This document shows, piece after piece, positions 43,427 to 51,580 of a stretch of 64,000 nt of DNA. The stretch covers positions 160,001 to 224,000 of the forward strand of contig CAWAMW010000017.1 in the NCBI GenBank assembly GCA_963783305.1, read 5' to 3'. The position numbers and the translations under genes are program-made. The notes beneath the pieces were generated by a model that ran no database searches, had not been told where the DNA came from, and saw only the letters and a list, made by a program, of their open reading frames with translations. The DNA is from an uncultured Gemmatimonadales bacterium. GTDB lineage: Bacteria; Gemmatimonadota; Gemmatimonadetes; Longimicrobiales; RSA9. Positions within the stretch are counted from its first letter, which is position 1. The number at the start of each line of letters is the position of its first letter.

Positions 43427-43927
43427 ATGAAGAAGCTCGCGATCGTTACTCTGGTAGCAGCGGCGGCTCTGGCACTGCCGGAGCTGGCATTCGCGCAGGC
43501 CATCACCGCCAGCGCGACAGTGAACTCACTCTTCAGCGAGGGTCTGACCCAGGGCCTGACGTTCAATGCGGTGAACCCGGGAACGGCAGCGGCGGTGGAT
43601 ATCACGAGCGGCACGGGCGGCACGCCGGGGTATGTGGAGTTCAACTACAACGCGAACTACAAGGTGACGGCGACGACCCTCCCCGCCACCCTGACAAATG
43701 GCGGCACTTCGACCCTGTCGGTAGCTTGGATGTGTGGGACGTCGTCGGCCGTGGGCATAAACCCCGCGGCGTCGGCGGCGTGTGTACAGGGCAATGTGGT
43801 GGACAGCGACAACGCTGTGGCGGATTTCGGAACCGTGGTGGTGTGGCTCGGTGGCTCAATCGCCAACACGGACGTCCTGGCCGGAACGTACACCGGGAAC
43901 ATCACCTTCACGATCTCGGCGTTCTGA
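43427..43927 (+). CDS. Putative major pilin-like subunit (DUF4402/spore-coat-U-like)
   Basis: Strong RBS AGGAGG, signal peptide AFA|Q, Thr/Gly/Ala/Asn-rich, one Cys pair, C-terminal WLGG...AGTYTGNITFTI. Confidence 0.7.
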   Translation: MKKLAIVTLVAAAALALPELAFAQAITASATVNSLFSEGLTQGLTFNAVNPGTAAAVDITSGTGGTPGYVEFNYNANYKVTATTLPATLTNGGTSTLSVAWMCGTSSAVGINPAASAACVQGNVVDSDNAVADFGTVVVWLGGSIANTDVLAGTYTGNITFTISAF

Positions 43928-43956
43928 TCGAGTCGTAGCAATGGGAGGGCACGGCG

Positions 43957-44469
43957 ATGCGGTTCCGCTTCGAGAATCCTGCGAGGATCATCGGCGGAGC
44001 CGTTTTCGTCTCGGCCCTGCTGGTGTCCCCTCCCGGGGCATACGCCCAGGGAGTTGGCGGGGGGGCGGGTGGAGGAGGAGAGGCCACCGTACAGCCGGTT
44101 CAGGGCCTCGAGTTCGGACTGCTCATTCCCGGCACTCCCATGCGTGTGCGGCCGGATGATGTGGGGCGGCGCGGCGAGCTGCAGGTCTCTGGAAGGGGGC
44201 AGTACCAGGTCCGGTTCGTTCTTCCCGCGTCTCTCGTGTCGGCTGAGGGGGCCAGTATCCCGGTCGAGTTCGGTCCCGGTGACGCGGCGGTGGTACGGGG
44301 CACTGCGGGGTCACCGCAGCTGTTCGATCCCAGTGTGGGAGCGGGCGTCTCCTTGACGGCAGGCATCAGCGAGGCGCAGTTGTTTCTCGGCGGAACGGCG
44401 CGACCGGCGGGGAATCAGGCGGCCGGGACGTACTCGGCGAGTGTCACGGTTCTGGTGGCCCGAAACTGA
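43957..44469 (+). CDS. Pilin-like minor subunit with Gly-rich N-terminus
   Basis: AYA|Q; QGLEFG..PG, FVLP, FLGG...QAAGTYSASVTV, paralogous to 43427. Confidence 0.65.
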   Translation: MRFRFENPARIIGGAVFVSALLVSPPGAYAQGVGGGAGGGGEATVQPVQGLEFGLLIPGTPMRVRPDDVGRRGELQVSGRGQYQVRFVLPASLVSAEGASIPVEFGPGDAAVVRGTAGSPQLFDPSVGAGVSLTAGISEAQLFLGGTARPAGNQAAGTYSASVTVLVARN

Positions 44470-45386
44470 TGGTGACGAAGAAAGAGGGCGGGATGGTCAG
44501 GCTCATGGGGACAGTGAAGAGGCGGGGACCGCTGGCAGTTGCGGCGGTCTTCGCTGTGCTGTTGCTCCCCATCCTGGCGGATGCGGTGTCGGTTAGCCCG
44601 GTGGCGCTCTACATGGATCACCGAACCCGGTCGGAGACGCTCACGCTCTACAACTCGGGGACGACGACGGAGGAGATCGAGATCTCTTTCGCGTTTGGCT
44701 ATGCCCGCTCCGACTCGACAGGCGACGTGAGCGTGTTCTTCAGCGATGATCCCGCGCCGGCAGGCGAGCCGTCGGTGGTTCCCTACCTGAGGGCCTTCCC
44801 GCGCCAGCTGCGCCTCGCTCCCGGGGAGCGGCAGGTCGTCCGCATCCTGGTCACACCGCCGGCGGACCTGCCCGCCGGCGAGTACTGGGGGCGCGTGATG
44901 GTCACGTCGCGTGGCGGACAGCCGCCCATCGAGGAGTCCCGCGGCGACGTCCAGATGCAGCTCAGTCTGACCACCGTGATCGCGGTCGCCCTCAACTACC
45001 GGCATGGCGAAGTCGCCACCGGGCTGGCGGTCCGGTCGGTCGACGCGGTGCAGACGGAGGAGACGATCGAGTTCATCGCGGACGTGGAGCGGATCGGCAA
45101 CGCCGCCTTCCTCGGCCGCGTTGTCGCGGAGGTCGTGGACGCGGACGGCAATGTGGTCGCGGAGCACGTGGAGGACATGGTTGCCTACGTCCCCACACTG
45201 TGGCGCTTCTCCATACCGCGGCCCGCAGGGACTCTGGGAGCGGGAGCGGTGGTGAGGTACCGGTTCGAGGCGGAGCGGGCCGGGGTGCCCGCAGGGGCCA
45301 TCCTCCCGGCCGAGCCCGTCCGCGGCACCGCACCGATCCGGCCGGTCGCCAACGCGCCCACACCAACGTCCCACCCCGACCGATGA
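44469..45386 (+). CDS. PapD-like periplasmic pilus chaperone
   Basis: Signal peptide, VSVSPVALYM..R...LTLYN, FPRQLRLAPGERQVVRI, GEY, second Ig-like domain (RIGNAAF.G). Exact start uncertain. Confidence 0.72.
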   Translation: MVTKKEGGMVRLMGTVKRRGPLAVAAVFAVLLLPILADAVSVSPVALYMDHRTRSETLTLYNSGTTTEEIEISFAFGYARSDSTGDVSVFFSDDPAPAGEPSVVPYLRAFPRQLRLAPGERQVVRILVTPPADLPAGEYWGRVMVTSRGGQPPIEESRGDVQMQLSLTTVIAVALNYRHGEVATGLAVRSVDAVQTEETIEFIADVERIGNAAFLGRVVAEVVDADGNVVAEHVEDMVAYVPTLWRFSIPRPAGTLGAGAVVRYRFEAERAGVPAGAILPAEPVRGTAPIRPVANAPTPTSHPDR

Positions 45387-45934
45387 GCACCGGCGCGCGA
45401 CTGCTGGCGCTGTTCCTTGCGGTCGGCGTGCTCGGCGCCCCCACCGGAGTCCGTGCTCAGGGTGGGACGCTGGCCGCCAGCGTGAACATCCTGCTACCTC
45501 CGGCCAGCGGCAGCGGTCTGAGGGGGCTGGAATTCGGGACGGTCACGCCCGGGACCCCCGCGGAGGTCCTGCCCATCGCGCCGCTCAGCGGCTGGTTTCA
45601 GCTGACGAGTGTGAATCGGAAGACCAATGTTCGGCTCACGTTCACGCTGCCCTCCGTGCTGATCCGGGCTGGCGGCAGCCAGGCACTGCCGATCTTCTTC
45701 GATGGCCCCTACGTCCGCTCGTGCGGGAACGGCTGCCAGACCCACACGATCACTCCTACCCCGCTCAACGCTACGCAATCGACGGCCGAGGCCATCCACG
45801 TTCGCCCCGGCCCCCCCTGGGGTGCCAACCCCACCGTCATCGACGTGTACATAGGAGGCCGGGTGGAACCGACACCGGCGCAGCTGGCCGGCTCGTACCT
45901 GGGCACCATCCAGCTCACGTTCGCGGCTCTCTGA
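45383..45934 (+). CDS. Pilin-like minor subunit
   Basis: VRA|Q; GLEFGTVTPG, FTLP, CGNGC, YIGG...QLAGSYLGTIQLTF; ATGA overlap. Confidence 0.65.
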   Translation: MSTGARLLALFLAVGVLGAPTGVRAQGGTLAASVNILLPPASGSGLRGLEFGTVTPGTPAEVLPIAPLSGWFQLTSVNRKTNVRLTFTLPSVLIRAGGSQALPIFFDGPYVRSCGNGCQTHTITPTPLNATQSTAEAIHVRPGPPWGANPTVIDVYIGGRVEPTPAQLAGSYLGTIQLTFAAL

Positions 45935-45966
45935 GCCGCGCGGCGAGCCCCCTTCCGCGCTCCGCC

Positions 45967-48477
45967 ATGCGCCGCACGCTAGCGGTCGTGATCCTCGCGG
46001 CGGCGGCCGCCGCGGCTGTTCCGACGTGCGGTACCGCTCAACAGCTGCCGGCGCACGTGGAGGAGGGCCTCTTCGAGGTGCTCGTCCCGGCCCTCGGAGC
46101 GATCACGGTGCCCGTCCTGGTGGATACCGCCCAGGCGGTCCTGCTCCCGCTCGAGCCCGTTCTCAGCCACCTGGGCTTTCTCGTCGAGACCGGCCCCCTG
46201 CAAGCGGCCTGGCGACCGGCCGCGGCGGCGCCCGAAAGCCGGCTCCAGCTAACCCCGCCGCATTACCGCGACGTCGACGGAGACACCCTCTCCCTCCCGC
46301 CAAGCTCCGTCCTCCGGTACGGCGGCGAGGTCTTCGTCAGCACGGCCGCCCTGGGCGTATTGCTGGGCGCCGAGATCGAGGTGGACTGGGGTGCACTTCG
46401 GGTGGTGCTGACCCGCAGGGACCCGCCCTTCCCCGCCCACGCCCGCGCGCTGGTCGAGGCCCGCCGCAGTCGGCTGGCGAGGCCGGAGCGCGGTGCGGGC
46501 GCCCCCTCGGTGCCGTACACCCCGCGCACGGGGGGCGGAATCCTGGACTGGAGCCTGGGCACTTCTCCACTGGAGGATCGGACCCTTGCACGCGTCGCAC
46601 TCGGTGCCGCGATTCTCGGCGGCGACCTGGTGGTCGGCGGATCCGTGGTCACGGGCGACTCCCCCGACCGCGCGGGCGAGGTATCCTACCGCCGCATCTT
46701 CCCCGAGCGGCGCTGGATCAACCAACTGCTGCTGGGGCAGGTCGTCACCCAGGACCTGGCACCCCGATCGATCATGGGCGCGGTCGTGTCGAACATCCCC
46801 CAGCAGCGCGACGCCCATTTCAGCGACGTTGCCATCGCTCCGGACATCCCGGAGGGATGGGAGTTCGAGGTGTACCAGGGCGGTCGCCTCGTCGGGTTCT
46901 CCAGCGCCGGCGCAGATGAGGCCGTGCTCGTGCCCGTCCGGTACGGTCAGACACCCGTCGAGGTGCGAATGGTGGGACCGTCCGGGGAGGAAGTGGTGTC
47001 GCAATACCGTTACCTGGTTCCGATCACACACCTCCCGCCCGGGCGGACGGAGTACTCCGCGGGCGTGGGCGTCTGCCCCGCCGACCGCTGCGACGGGATC
47101 GGCTACGGCGAGCTTCGACACGGCTGGGGGCAACGGCTCACTCTCGGCGGTGGTGTCCAGGCGCTCTCCGAAGACGGGGAGCTGAGGGTCAGGCCGTCCG
47201 CCCTGGCGAGCTTCGCGCCCGATCGCCACTGGGCTCTCGAAATGGAGGCGCGCGCCGAGGAGTTCGTCCGCGCCTCCGTGGATCGCATGGGAGACGACGG
47301 GCGGCACGTGGGTGTCGATGCATCTCTCCACCAGTCGATTTTCGGTCAGCCCTCTTTCCTGCCGGGATCGGGTGCGCGCTGGCAGCTGCAGGGCCAGGCG
47401 GGGGCCCACCCCGTTCACGTGACCGGCCGGATCGATGGGGTGGCGGGCGACGGAATCGAGCGGGTTCGCCTCGCCGCTGGCCGCTCGCTCCCGCGGGGGT
47501 TCGGTGAACTGGCCGTGGAGGGCGGCCCTTTCGGCGCTGACCGCGTCACCGGCCGCGCCACCACGATCCTCCCCGAGCGCCTTTGGGCGTTCGGACGACC
47601 CATCGCCGTTTCCGGCAGCATGAGCGCCACCGCCGACGGGCTGCGGCTCCTGGAGTTGAGCAGCTCGATGCGGCCTCGGCGCGAAAGCTACCTGAGCGCC
47701 GCCCTCCAGTGGAACGGGGAGCGCGACGAGCTCCACCTAAAGGTCACCTTCCGACAGGTGCTCCAGGCCGCGCGCCTCGACGCCGCCCTCTCCCAGCGCT
47801 CCGCCAACTCCAGCCTCACCATGTCCGCCAACGGCTCCATCGCGATCGGCGGGGTACGCGGCTCCCATTTCTCCAGTCGAGACCTCCAGCGACGAGCCGG
47901 CGTCGTCGGCCGCGTCTACTACGACCGGAACGGAAACCGCGCGTTCGACGATGGCGAACAGCCCGCCCCCGACGTCTCGGTACTCGTGGGCGGCATGCGT
48001 ACCAGGACGGACGACGACGGGCTCTACCGCGCGTGGAACGTTACCCCCTACGAGGTCACTGCCGTCTCCGTCGACACCCTCTCGGGGATCGACCCGCGCT
48101 ACACCGTCCTCACCGGCGGCACACTCCTGCGCCCCGTTCCACACCTCCCAAACCGCGTGGACTTCCCGCTCACCGAGACGCGCGAGCTCCTCGGCCGCGT
48201 CCAGAGGGAGAACGGAAAAGGCGTCGGTGGCGTCGAGATCGAGATCCTGAGCGCCCATGGTGACCCCGTCCAGACCCTCCGGACCTTCACCGACGGGACC
48301 TTCTACGTGAGCCGCCTCCTGCCCGGCGATTGGCGCGTGCGGATCGCCAGCCGATCACTCCGCGCACTCGGCGTGGCTTCCGCACCGCCCGAGGTCACCG
48401 TCCACATCCGCCTCCAGGAGTCCGAGCCGCTGCTGGAAATCCCACCCTTCGTACTGCGCGAGGACGCGGAGCCCTGA
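45967..48477 (+). CDS. Usher-like outer-membrane assembly protein with two C-terminal beta-sandwich domains
   Basis: Signal peptide; plug-like WEFEVYQGGRL...PVRYG...GPSGE...LPPGRTEYSAGVG; alternating barrel strands; GRVYYDRNGNRAFDDGE and TFTDGTFY..LLPGDW domains. Confidence 0.7.
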   Translation: MRRTLAVVILAAAAAAAVPTCGTAQQLPAHVEEGLFEVLVPALGAITVPVLVDTAQAVLLPLEPVLSHLGFLVETGPLQAAWRPAAAAPESRLQLTPPHYRDVDGDTLSLPPSSVLRYGGEVFVSTAALGVLLGAEIEVDWGALRVVLTRRDPPFPAHARALVEARRSRLARPERGAGAPSVPYTPRTGGGILDWSLGTSPLEDRTLARVALGAAILGGDLVVGGSVVTGDSPDRAGEVSYRRIFPERRWINQLLLGQVVTQDLAPRSIMGAVVSNIPQQRDAHFSDVAIAPDIPEGWEFEVYQGGRLVGFSSAGADEAVLVPVRYGQTPVEVRMVGPSGEEVVSQYRYLVPITHLPPGRTEYSAGVGVCPADRCDGIGYGELRHGWGQRLTLGGGVQALSEDGELRVRPSALASFAPDRHWALEMEARAEEFVRASVDRMGDDGRHVGVDASLHQSIFGQPSFLPGSGARWQLQGQAGAHPVHVTGRIDGVAGDGIERVRLAAGRSLPRGFGELAVEGGPFGADRVTGRATTILPERLWAFGRPIAVSGSMSATADGLRLLELSSSMRPRRESYLSAALQWNGERDELHLKVTFRQVLQAARLDAALSQRSANSSLTMSANGSIAIGGVRGSHFSSRDLQRRAGVVGRVYYDRNGNRAFDDGEQPAPDVSVLVGGMRTRTDDDGLYRAWNVTPYEVTAVSVDTLSGIDPRYTVLTGGTLLRPVPHLPNRVDFPLTETRELLGRVQRENGKGVGGVEIEILSAHGDPVQTLRTFTDGTFYVSRLLPGDWRVRIASRSLRALGVASAPPEVTVHIRLQESEPLLEIPPFVLREDAEP

Positions 48478-48569
48478 CCCCGGTCCGCCAACCGAGGGAA
48501 CCACTACGATCGAATGGCCGTTCCAAGGCGGCCATCACCGATCGCTCCAGCACGGATTTGCGCCGCGAA

Positions 48570-48926
48570 TCAAGGGGCGGCCAGCACCACCCGCACGGGA
48601 ACCGCGCTCGTACCCGAGTCCCGCGCCAGAGTCGCCCAGTCGGACGCCGACAGCTCCAGCCGACCCGCGGGTCCAGGGTCACGAGTCACTGCGTAGCCCT
48701 CAGCACCCACCCGCACGCTCACCGTCCACCGGTGCCTCCCCTCCACAACCACCGCCGGCTCACCTTCCGCGACACCGGAGGCCTCGATCCGCACCGATGG
48801 CTGCACGCTCGGCGCAAGCACCGTCACACTGGCCTGAATACTGGCTGATTGCGCCTCCGACGCGGTCGGACACACCGCCAGCAGAGCCAGCGCCGCCACC
48901 ACAACTGCCTGACCCGTGAATCTCAT
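48570..48926 (-). CDS. Small secreted protein with pilin-like N-terminal strand
   Basis: GAGGAG RBS, signal peptide SEA|Q, mature N-terminus QSASIQASVTVLAP. Confidence 0.65.
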   Translation of the reverse strand: MRFTGQAVVVAALALLAVCPTASEAQSASIQASVTVLAPSVQPSVRIEASGVAEGEPAVVVEGRHRWTVSVRVGAEGYAVTRDPGPAGRLELSASDWATLARDSGTSAVPVRVVLAAP

Positions 48927-48965: not shown

Positions 48966-49021
48966 GCGAGAACCGTGCTACGCGGACAATATGAGGGAAA
49001 CCGTTGGTGGACAACACTTTA
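48966..49021 (-). promoter_or_regulatory. Double IHF-like palindrome plus imperfect sigma54-like element
   Basis: GAAACCGTTGGTGGACAACACTTTA (48997-49021); minus-strand TAGCACGGTTCTCGC (48980-48966) has AG instead of GG. Confidence 0.45.
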
Positions 49022-49201
49022 TAAGTATATCCACCCTCGCGCTCCAGGCACCCGGGCTGTCCGGGATCCAGACGCCTGGAGCGGTGAATACGGATCTTGT
49101 GAAGGGGATCCTGGGCCGGCATCCGAAAACCAGACACTGTGTGAATCCCGGACACCACCGGGTAATCGCCGGTCCACGCGCTGCTCGGCCGGCGACCCCG
49201 G

Positions 49202-49594
49202 TCAGAAGGCGAGGGTCTTCTCGGAGTACAGCGCGAACTGGGTGGGCGTCTCCCACACCTTCACGTAGAGGAGCGCGGCGGCCATGTCGGTCGGGAGTCG
49301 CTGCTTCAGCTCATCGAAGAAGAAGCGGGCCTGGTTCTCGGCAGAGGGCTCGACCTCGTCGAAAGGCGGGAGCTCGTTGATGTTCTCATGATCGAGCCAG
49401 TCGGCAAGCTCGCGCGTGTGCCTCTTCACGTCGACGAAGTCGAAGGCCAGACCGGCCGCGTTCAGCTCGTCGGACATTAGTGCGACTTCCACCACATAGC
49501 GGTGGCCGTGAAGCCTCTCGCACTTCCCCTTGTAGTTGCGGAGGAAATGGGCCGAGTCGTAATGGGCCTGCACACTGACGACGTACATGGTCAA
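49202..49594 (-). CDS. queD: 6-carboxytetrahydropterin synthase / PTPS (COG0720), CExxHGH motif
   Basis: YDSAHFL..Y.GKCERLHGH, DF..VK, LDH, PSAEN, VWETP. Confidence 0.85.
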   Translation of the reverse strand: MTMYVVSVQAHYDSAHFLRNYKGKCERLHGHRYVVEVALMSDELNAAGLAFDFVDVKRHTRELADWLDHENINELPPFDEVEPSAENQARFFFDELKQRLPTDMAAALLYVKVWETPTQFALYSEKTLAF

Positions 49595-50361
49595 CTCCGT
49601 TGGACTGCGACCGTAGGGATGTGGACTCCCGGCGGCCGCGATAGGACGAACAGAACGGCGTCGGCGATGGCCTGGGCCGTGAGCATTTCACTGCGCGCGG
49701 GAAGATCCGGCCGCCCGTCCGGATCGATGGGATCCCAGATTGGGGTGTCGGTGGCGGCGGGCTCCACGAGGGTCGCGCGCACGCCGGTGCCACGGAGCTC
49801 CTGCACCAGGACCTCGTGCATTCCCCGCACGCCGAACTTGGACGCCGAGTACGCGGCGTTGCCGGGGAAGGCTGTCCTCCCGGCCACGGAACCGATGGTG
49901 ACGATGTGCCCGGCCCCGGCGGCGAGCATGGACGGGAGTAGGGCGCGGGTAACGAGGAACGGCGCGGTCAGGTTGCCGTCTATCATGCGCTGGAACATCC
50001 GGGGCTCGGTCTCCGCCAGGGGCGCGAGGTCGAACGCGCCCACCGCGTGGACAACGGCAAACAGTGGCCCCTCGTCCAGCACGGCCTCGGCCAGCGCCCC
50101 GACGGCGTCGGCGTCCGACGCATCGGCGGGAAGGGCGCGCGCCCCGGTGTCGGCCGCCAGGTGGTGCAGCCGCTCCGCTCCGCGCGCGGTCGCCAGCACG
50201 CGCGCGCCCCGGCCGGTCAGTCTACGGACGACTGCCGCGCCGATCCCTCCGGTCGCACCCGTCACCAGAATGAGTCGGCCCGTCAGGTCGACCGCGTCGA
50301 TGCTCCCGCCGACGTCAGAGGGTCCAGCCCGGCCCGGATCCACCTCAGTCGATGATGCCAT
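49591..50361 (-). CDS. SDR oxidoreductase in the pterin operon
   Basis: [28 protein letters not shown]; overlaps folE and queD. Confidence 0.85.
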
Positions 50362-50935
50362 TCGACATCGTCAGTCGGAGGAACTCCTCGCGGGTCCTGA
50401 TGTCCTCGAGGAACACACCCTTCATTGCACTGGTGATGGTCTTCGAGTTCTGCTTCTCCACGCCACGCATCATCATGCACAGGTGATAGGCCTCCACGAC
50501 CACCCCCACGCCTTCCGGCTTCAGCACCTCCTGGATGGCGTCGGCCACCTGCTCCGTGAGCCGCTCCTGCACCTGGAGCCGACGCGCGAACACGTCCACG
50601 ATCCGCGGGACCTTGCTGAGTCCCAGGATCCGACCGTTCGGGATGTACGCCACATGCACCTTCCCGAAGAACGGCAGCATGTGATGCTCGCACAACGAGT
50701 ACATCTCGATGTCCTTCACCACCACCATGTTGTGATGGTCCTCGTTGAAGATGGCCGTGCCGATCACATCCTCCACCGCCTGACCGTATCCCCGCGTCAG
50801 CCACTTCAGGCTGTCCGCCACCCGGTCCGGCGTCCGCAGCAATCCCTCCCGCTCCGGATCCTCACCCAGTCGCGACAGCAGCTCCCTGACCAGATCCCGT
50901 GTCTCCACCGTCTCCAGCTCCGACCCGCTCCCCAT
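50345..50935 (-). CDS. folE: GTP cyclohydrolase I
   Basis: [44 protein letters not shown]. Confidence 0.97.
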
Positions 50936-50937
50936 CC

Positions 50938-51354
50938 TCAACCCCCCGCGTATTCCACGTAGTTGCGCGGCGTCTCCCACAGGACCAGCCGCACCAGCTC
51001 CACCTCACCCGGGAGCTCCGTCACCAGTCGGCCCCAGATCGCCACCACCAGGTTCTCCGTAGTGGGATTCTGACCGCCGAGCCACTCCACGTCCAGATTC
51101 AGATTCCGGTGATCGACGTCCCCCAGCACCCGCTCCTCCACGAGCGCCTTCAGATCCTTGAGGTCCAGAACGAACCCCGTCTCCCCGTCTACCTCGCCCT
51201 CCACCGTCACATCCAGCTCGTAGTTGTGGCCGTGCCAGTTCGGGTTCGAGCAGTCCCCGAAGACCGCCGCGTTCCGCTCAGCACTCCACTCGGCGAGACC
51301 CAGTCGATGCGCCGCCGCGAAGTGTACCCGCCGCGTTACCCGGACCCTCGGCAT
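50938..51354 (-). CDS. 6-pyruvoyl-tetrahydropterin synthase (COG0720), CX5HGH motif
   Basis: [43 protein letters not shown]. Confidence 0.88.
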
Positions 51355-51385
51355 TCGCCACCTCCACCTCGCCACAGGAAACGAT

Positions 51386-51421
51386 GAAAGGGCCGGTCCG
51401 CGACGCATCGCAGACCGGCCC
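51386..51421 (-). terminator. Intrinsic terminator after the 6S RNA
   Basis: GGGCCGGTCTGCGA-loop-TCGCGGACCGGCCC followed by TTTC on the minus strand. Confidence 0.75.
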
Positions 51422-51580
51422 AGTCGGCACACCGAAGGGTATATTTGAAGCCCAGTCGTTAATAACTGGTGACCTCCCCGCGCCTTCCGTCTTCCCTCTC
51501 GGGCCTGACGTCCGGCACAGAAGTGAGTCCCTGCTTCTGTAGTGTCGGCTCAAATGACGGCCCTTCAGTGCACCGCACCT
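51422..51580 (-). ncRNA. ssrS: 6S RNA
   Basis: Rod structure: CGGUGCACUGAAGGG/CCCUUCGGUGUGCCG closing stem, AUUUGAGCC/GGCUUCAAAU, A-rich central bubble with a 3' mini-hairpin, upper stem ending in a GAGA tetraloop; own promoter and terminator. Confidence 0.88.

Follow-up and report, generated by a model that had tools for sequence, protein, structure and literature searches.

A predicted chaperone-usher cluster with DUF4402-like subunits in Gemmatimonadota and an usher outside the sampled named groups

An uncultured Gemmatimonadales bacterium (assembly GCA_963783305.1) carries on contig CAWAMW010000017.1 a gene cluster whose products very probably build an adhesive fibre on the cell surface through the donor-strand exchange of the chaperone-usher pathway; the predicted usher falls outside the named groups that we sampled. 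The cluster lies at 43427..48926 of the 64,000-nt stretch analyzed here (contig positions 160,001-224,000; hereafter the window, to which all coordinates refer). Five genes on one strand encode subunit A, subunit B, a chaperone, subunit C, and the usher in this order, followed by the convergent gene D on the minus strand, and all six products have signal-peptide-like N-termini. An earlier reading of the sequence alone had already noted this operon and its convergent small gene, which we confirm except that the usher has 836 and not 837 amino acids; its interpretation as a divergent fimbrial system is largely supported by our results. Key features of the chaperone-usher pathway are present, i.e., an usher with barrel, plug, and C-terminal domains (in a structural model), a pilin with an incomplete immunoglobulin (Ig) fold (in a model of A), and a chaperone with the invariant proline. 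As a class, this mechanism is already known, and what varies here is the usher branch and the proposed single-domain tip.

Because the order A-B-chaperone-C-usher recurs in loci L017-L022, and subunits, chaperone, and usher stand together in most of the 54 loci compared, the cluster is not a product of chance. These loci are the window and 53 others taken from 13 of 14 hit genomes and contigs and from 40 of 60 strong-hit genomes. Of these, 45 (window included) have an usher and a chaperone with two, three, or four detected subunits; the remaining nine are truncated at the ends of contigs, have diverged too far for our profiles, or are spurious. In the 4.35-Mb genome of the window, the system is single-copy by profile search, and the Pfam Usher model finds no canonical usher there.

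The predicted usher and its chaperone

Sequence searches on their own did not reveal the nature of the large protein (45967-48477, plus strand). Pfam and NCBIfam find no usher or chaperone family among the window proteins (Usher, PapC_N, and PapD_N all without match), the large protein itself has a CarboxypepD_reg match and an SdrD_B match below the cut-off, and no pilus protein was found among PDB sequences when the usher, its profile, the profile of the chaperone, or either of two profiles of subunits served as query. Together with C-terminal matches to SdrD/NOMO-like domains, these results would fit an outer-membrane barrel unrelated to ushers that transports or anchors complete Ig-like DUF4402 domains, with the chaperone-like protein as an Ig-fold accessory. 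The AlphaFold2 model of the protein (123-sequence alignment, mean predicted local distance difference test score (pLDDT) 94.4) points elsewhere. It consists of an N-terminal periplasmic domain (NTD; model residues 7-125, 46057..46413), six barrel strands, a six-strand plug between barrel strands 6 and 7 (residues 260-327, 46816-47019), eighteen further barrel strands up to residue 603, and two C-terminal domains (CTD1 and CTD2, 47896..48462); the predicted barrel thus has 24 strands, hand-counted from the DSSP list (residues 165-603, 46531..47847). When this model was compared by VIA with 48,161 chains, the four best matches were FimD/PapC (Z 20.7, 19.8, 19.3, and 18.6; root-mean-square deviation (rmsd) 5.3-12.1) and the next barrel reached 14.1. 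Foldseek likewise ranks FimD first (E 6e-28), and a profile-profile comparison with nine E. coli K-12 ushers aligns residues 155-771 with both CTDs collinear (probability 96, E 4.5e-9). The number of strands, the place of the plug, the collinear CTDs, and the order of structural matches therefore all indicate an usher, as the sequence-only reading had claimed, and a transporter of complete domains would also leave the rule of one donor-less subunit per operon (see below) without explanation. That alternative is largely refuted and, in our judgment, very improbable.

The same reading had singled out the SdrD-B/Cna-like and carboxypeptidase-regulatory-like C-terminus of the usher as unusual, but we rejected the idea of a novel add-on: these are the usual CTD pair of an usher, because they are collinear with the CTDs of FimD and because EcpC, the usher of the E. 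coli common pilus (ECP), matches CarboxypepD_reg too. The one extra feature compared with ordinary CTDs is a DxNGN loop inserted in the SdrD-B-like CTD1, CTD2 being CarboxypepD_reg-like. The first Asp of this loop is invariant in 123 sequences, and CTD1 superposes on an SdrD B domain (4jdz; Z 11.9, rmsd 1.8, 92 residues); in SdrD B domains, the corresponding loop binds calcium. The predicted usher thus shares barrel, plug, and both collinear CTDs with FimD and PapC of type 1 and P pili but is 13-14% identical to them, has an NTD that is not matched by sequence, and carries the inserted loop. Two further observations concern this protein family. A nearly invariant Cys pair of the usher consensus (model residues 346 and 351) lies in a barrel loop just after the plug and likely forms a disulfide, and the family ushers P0160 and P0173 have C-terminal OmpA and SPOR peptidoglycan-binding domains that could tether the usher to cell wall or septum.

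The periplasmic chaperone of the predicted non-classical type is encoded at 44469-45386 on the plus strand (305 aa from the first ATG, 297 aa from the ATG at 44493). Its profile matches a Polaromonas chaperone in profile-profile comparison (probability 97.9), which in turn scores above the PapD_N cut-off. According to PMC4654587, all chaperones of the pathway have an invariant Pro, and non-classical ones additionally have an Arg and a domain-2 Tyr. The alignment places the codons of these residues in the window at 44799 (Pro), 44892 (Arg), and 45186 (Tyr). In one alignment of 48 Gemmatimonadota chaperones, the Pro is found in all, the Arg at the CsuC/EcpB Arg89 column in 46 (compared to sigma 11/11, alpha 2/2, and classical 0/8), and the Tyr in 43; no column could be assigned to the second Arg (Arg174). 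The classical anchor residues are nearly absent (Arg 0/48, Lys 2/48). The chaperone profile is not significant against EcpB alone or eight classical chaperones and matches sigma chaperones weakly, with domain 2 aligning poorly.

Subunits and a proposed fibre

The three subunit genes are all located on the plus strand. Subunit A (43427-43927, 166 aa) has a 23-aa signal peptide (by inspection) followed by an N-terminal extension of alternating small and hydrophobic residues, i.e., a predicted donor strand (43496..43531), and a pilin domain that ends at strand F. In subunit B (43957-44469, 170 aa), a Gly-rich linker replaces the donor strand, while subunit C (45383-45934, 183 aa), apparently a minor pilin that is optional in the family, has one. 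As the sequence-only reading had proposed, the three are paralogues that align over the motifs listed there, B being 25% and C 29% identical to A. Its description of them as DUF4402-like holds for B, which exceeds the Pfam cut-off (27.3 bits; cut-off 25.2), but C remains below it (19.9) and A has no match, although DUF4402 is matched by 6 of 22 relatives of A. The SCPU domain (PF05229) has no match on the window subunits or these 22 relatives.

The proposed incomplete Ig fold was also borne out by the AlphaFold2 model of mature A (pLDDT 93.5), in which residues 1-12 are unpaired and the last strand is formed by residues 137-142, so that strand F is the last of the domain and the N-terminal strand is left free. 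Chaperone-usher pilins make up most of the best 50 hits in a VIA structural search with this model. Its leading matches are CsuA/B (residues 12-141 of A aligned with 15-155, Z 8.0, rmsd 2.9), the pilin domain of CsuE (Z 7.9), CupE1 (7.6), and CfaE (7.5); they are tied, and their Z range of 7.5-8.0 is one that the tool labels as 'possibly a common arrangement'. When donor-bearing subunits are combined into a profile, it matches seven sigma pilins with probability 95.8, donor strand included. Two other observations concern A and its relatives: the Atlas clusters nearest to A by language-model features are two with tailed-phage labels (scores 0.97 and 0.96), and a phage search with one major-subunit relative of A found nothing.

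The distribution of donor strands follows a simple rule. The donor motif is conserved in first subunits across loci, and exactly one subunit per operon is donor-less in 45 of 45 operons, with patterns of +- (23), +-+ (17), ++- (3), and ++-+ (1) plus one operon in which the start of the first gene is ambiguous; seven signal-cleavage or motif positions in this count were set by hand, and a stricter automatic donor score did not detect the motif in five C-type subunits where it is weaker, C of the window among them. Two-subunit operons are the commonest form (24/45). A subunit encoded after the chaperone bears a donor strand in 18 of 45 operons and is the sole donor-less subunit in five more. All mature subunits are small (126-184 aa, n=117), and none of the 46 operons examined has a two-domain adhesin in or beside it or a conserved large secreted flanking gene; subunit profiles find no other subunit-like gene elsewhere in the genome of the window either. 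The lack of a two-domain adhesin gene noted by the sequence-only reading holds for the operons examined. An adhesin hidden beside the operon was considered and rejected: ten flanking open reading frames (ORFs) with hydrophobic starts at the 46 operons are mutually unrelated apart from one pair of relatives.

These features suggest how the fibre may be built. The subunits would be exported by Sec, and the chaperone would complete the fold of each and anchor its C-terminus through Arg and Tyr as CsuC does. B should accept a strand but be unable to donate one, and we infer that it probably goes first and forms the single-domain tip cap or initiator, because a subunit that accepts but does not donate a strand can only occupy the distal end. 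A, whose position at the front of the operon is donor-bearing and preceded by a strong Shine-Dalgarno sequence, would polymerize as the major (shaft) pilin, with C as an optional adaptor or minor subunit. As the searches turned up no two-domain adhesin, B, the shaft, or both would have to provide adhesion, and the fibre would most likely serve in attachment to surfaces or in aggregation. The same export chemistry might instead produce short fibrils or a surface or matrix coat, for which Myxococcus protein U and amorphous polyadhesins assembled by FGL (F1-G1 long) chaperones are comparators. The missing two-domain adhesin, the prevalence of two-subunit operons, and the lack of any paper on such fibres in Gemmatimonadota in the literature searched all agree with this alternative, whereas a donor-less cap and a donor-bearing first gene with strong Shine-Dalgarno sequence fit a capped linear polymer, though they do not fix its length; we consider a coat or short fibrils unlikely compared with pili.

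Gene D (48570-48926, minus strand, 118 aa) encodes a small secreted protein with a signal peptide and a mature chain of 93 residues that starts with a donor-like strand, continues with a short body, and ends in a hydrophobic strand. It has no Pfam or NCBIfam match, and its donor-motif score is 13.3 compared with 15.9 for A. D-like ORFs number 14 in the 54 loci, 12 of them within 450 nt of operon ends, with a background of four other matches in the 4.35-Mb genome by the same scan. PapH of the P pilus donates a strand and thereby stops growth. D is best read as a truncated pilin of this kind, and it might, as a tentative proposal, donate a strand to the last subunit without accepting one and so end and anchor the fibre. 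ElrB has been predicted to be a strand-only terminator (10.64898/2026.10.17.759780), and PMC10104325 describes it as undetermined whether archaic pili have a terminator. The Enterococcus Elr system (WxL/DUF916) resembles the cluster in its chaperone-guided donor-strand exchange and in the predicted terminator, but it is Gram-positive, has no usher, and is sortase-anchored; ElrB is likened to D as an analogue.

Several points weigh against this account of the cluster besides the range of the pilin Z scores and the hand-set positions mentioned above. B is assigned to the tip on the strength of a motif that it lacks, and the usher NTD has no sequence match to the classical NTD by profile comparison and lies outside the VIA-aligned ranges. 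PapD_N is matched by just 2 of 52 family chaperones, for which there is also no PDB sequence match, and the non-classical Arg is found in none of nine proteobacterial DUF4402 chaperones, which have His or Tyr there. Likewise, a D-like ORF close to the operon end occurs at just 12 of 54 loci, several of them close kin, and these ORFs vary in orientation and have bodies that are not conserved. The usher NTD is a folded domain in the AlphaFold2 model, with weak Cu_amine_oxidN1 matches in 3 of 43 relatives. Since the nine proteobacterial chaperones (from loci L070, L071, and L157-L164) lack the non-classical Arg, Arg/Tyr anchoring is not family-wide; eight of them have an Arg at the classical position alongside the non-classical Tyr, and a hybrid anchoring mode is possible.

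Placement among chaperone-usher groups

The closest described relatives appear to be the archaic (sigma) pili such as Acinetobacter Csu and Pseudomonas CupE, which likewise encode several small subunits, a chaperone, and an usher in one operon and share the pilin fold with its donor strand as well as the chaperone Pro/Arg/Tyr (PMC4654587). The cluster could thus be a very diverged archaic pilus after loss of the two-domain adhesin rather than a separate branch, given that its pilins are homologous to sigma pilins, that the Arg/Tyr anchor is common to sigma chaperones, and that the chaperone profile reaches the latter, if weakly. However, the two-domain tip adhesins of sigma systems, CsuE and CupE6 (PMC10104325), have no counterpart here, and there is no SCPU match on the subunits. 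A Cys before the first F(G) motif, i.e., after the donor strand, is found in 1 of 117 family subunits; its count in the seven sigma pilins compared is circular because the selection pattern required this Cys.

The family usher profile matches eight of nine proteobacterial DUF4402 ushers at 1e-68 to 1e-100 (the ninth at 2e-7) but only two of ten sigma ushers, weakly (E 1.6e-5 and 1.3e-4), whereas a classical usher profile behaves in reverse, matching ten of ten sigma ushers (1e-24 to 1e-46) and none of the nine DUF4402 ushers. In a quick IQ-TREE analysis that included 44 ushers, those of the sigma and classical groups cluster with a support of 99 in the Shimodaira-Hasegawa-like approximate likelihood ratio test (SH-aLRT) to the exclusion of the DUF4402 family, EcpC joins them (94), and 23 of 24 DUF4402 ushers fall on the other side (88), the 24th, L160, being a long branch. 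This tree has long branches and biased composition, includes one alpha usher (EcpC) and no kappa ushers, and comes without an approximately unbiased (AU) test; what it shows is that the family is separate from the groups sampled, but no root or order of events. We therefore regard a diverged sigma pilus as an improbable description of the cluster, and neither the cross-profile searches nor the tree place its usher in the sigma clade.

Two other groups were compared. Similar to the family ushers, alpha EcpC escapes the Pfam Usher model and matches CarboxypepD_reg C-terminally; furthermore, the chaperone Arg falls in the EcpB Arg89 column of ECP (EcpABCD), and A matches the pilin domain of CfaE from CFA/I (Z 7.5). 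However, the alpha domains TcfC and CooC_C, both present in EcpC, are matched by neither the window usher nor its 43 relatives, the family usher profile is not significant against EcpC alone, the large adhesin EcpD has no counterpart here, and EcpC, the only alpha usher sampled, stands apart in the tree on a long branch. Classical membership is contradicted by the chaperone anchor residues, by PF00577 exceeding its cut-off in none of 201 Gemmatimonadota genomes, and by the tree, in which no kappa ushers were sampled. The usher phylogeny agrees with the proposed divergent class in that it places the window usher within none of the sigma, alpha, or classical groups sampled. By usher placement and gene set, the system appears to be neither sigma, alpha, nor classical, with pilins and chaperone that look sigma-like.

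Saf of Salmonella and Afa/Dr are classical FGL polyadhesins in which the polymer consists of one major subunit and ends in a single-domain cap, and their SafD and AfaD have no donor strand. The Saf fibre, SafD-(SafA)n (PMC5700814), provides a precedent for a single-domain tip, but the chaperones here lack the classical Arg and the usher lies outside the classical group. The single-domain tip would thus be convergent with FGL polyadhesins. Somewhat speculatively, we propose that DUF4402 operons may form a further major chaperone-usher clade, farther from sigma ushers than these are from classical ones, that might be the dominant chaperone-usher system of Gemmatimonadota and follow a minimal logic of a single-domain cap that lacks a donor strand, a single shaft pilin, and a separate stopper consisting of a donor strand only, with a calcium-type loop in CTD1.

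Distribution, genomic context, and implications

Usher relatives are numerous: 2,662 sequence clusters reach E <= 0.001, 1,409 reach <= 1e-10, and 225 reach <= 1e-30, with some of the weak matches confined to the C-terminal domains. Among 201 Gemmatimonadota genomes, the usher profile has matches in 81 at E <= 1e-10 and in 60 at E <= 1e-40, the other 21 being short and mostly C-terminal, while the Pfam Usher model (PF00577) exceeds its cut-off in none at the same settings; its sole weak match falls within an usher of the DUF4402 family. Named relatives of the window proteins are Gemmatimonadota, but the lineage scope of the sequence-only reading needs amendment: the same cassette, annotated as DUF4402 proteins, chaperone, and 'carboxypeptidase regulatory-like domain protein', is found on Polaromonas and Sphingopyxis plasmids, with further family matches in Novosphingobium and Pseudoalteromonas, and the system is thus not restricted to one lineage. 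Its cultured proteobacterial carriers include Polaromonas JS666 and Sphingopyxis indica. In the phylum of the Burkholderiales-labelled metagenome-assembled genome (MAG) G228, the DUF4402 model matches 10 of 301 genomes.

Some individual loci deserve mention. IS6 transposase genes border the Polaromonas plasmid cassette (L071:1956-9559) on both sides, which suggests mobility. Burkholderiales- and Acidimicrobiia-labelled MAGs (L079, i.e., G228:C123, and L084) encode Gemmatimonadaceae-like chaperones (80% and 39% to P0054), reflecting either transfer or bin contamination. Usher-family genes at L067 and L068 have no subunit or chaperone nearby by the profiles used, and L020:8513-9820 contains the major subunit gene in two identical tandem copies, either a real duplication or an assembly artefact.

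In the window, the cluster is followed at 48978-50980 and 50938-51432 by housekeeping-like genes (QueD-like, SDR, FolE-like, and a second QueD-like; names by inspection), with no clear shift in guanine-cytosine (GC) content. A promoter and terminator scan of the locus gave no signal exceeding shuffled sequences. Two loci of the window's genus or family (L027:5916-7742 and L028:407-2249) have a far more diverged cassette beside the same folE/queD/SDR neighbours, ordered subunit, chaperone, subunit, large protein, and convergent small gene, with chaperones without the non-classical Arg, and the L025 cassette also adjoins folE. This suggests that the locus beside folE/queD/SDR is old and that its cassette has been replaced or diverges fast.

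DUF4402 is not mentioned in the 8.4 million papers that we searched, and no description of this system was found in that literature, which leaves out most subscription journals. Our results thus provide a likely function for DUF4402 and indicate that the standard usher model misses a large usher branch, so that chaperone-usher pili would be scored as absent in a phylum in which ca. 30% of sampled genomes carry the system. Beyond annotation, a deep usher branch with a minimal operon of two subunits bears on how the pathway arose, on usher activation in systems that have no two-domain adhesin, and on the question of a terminator in non-classical pili.

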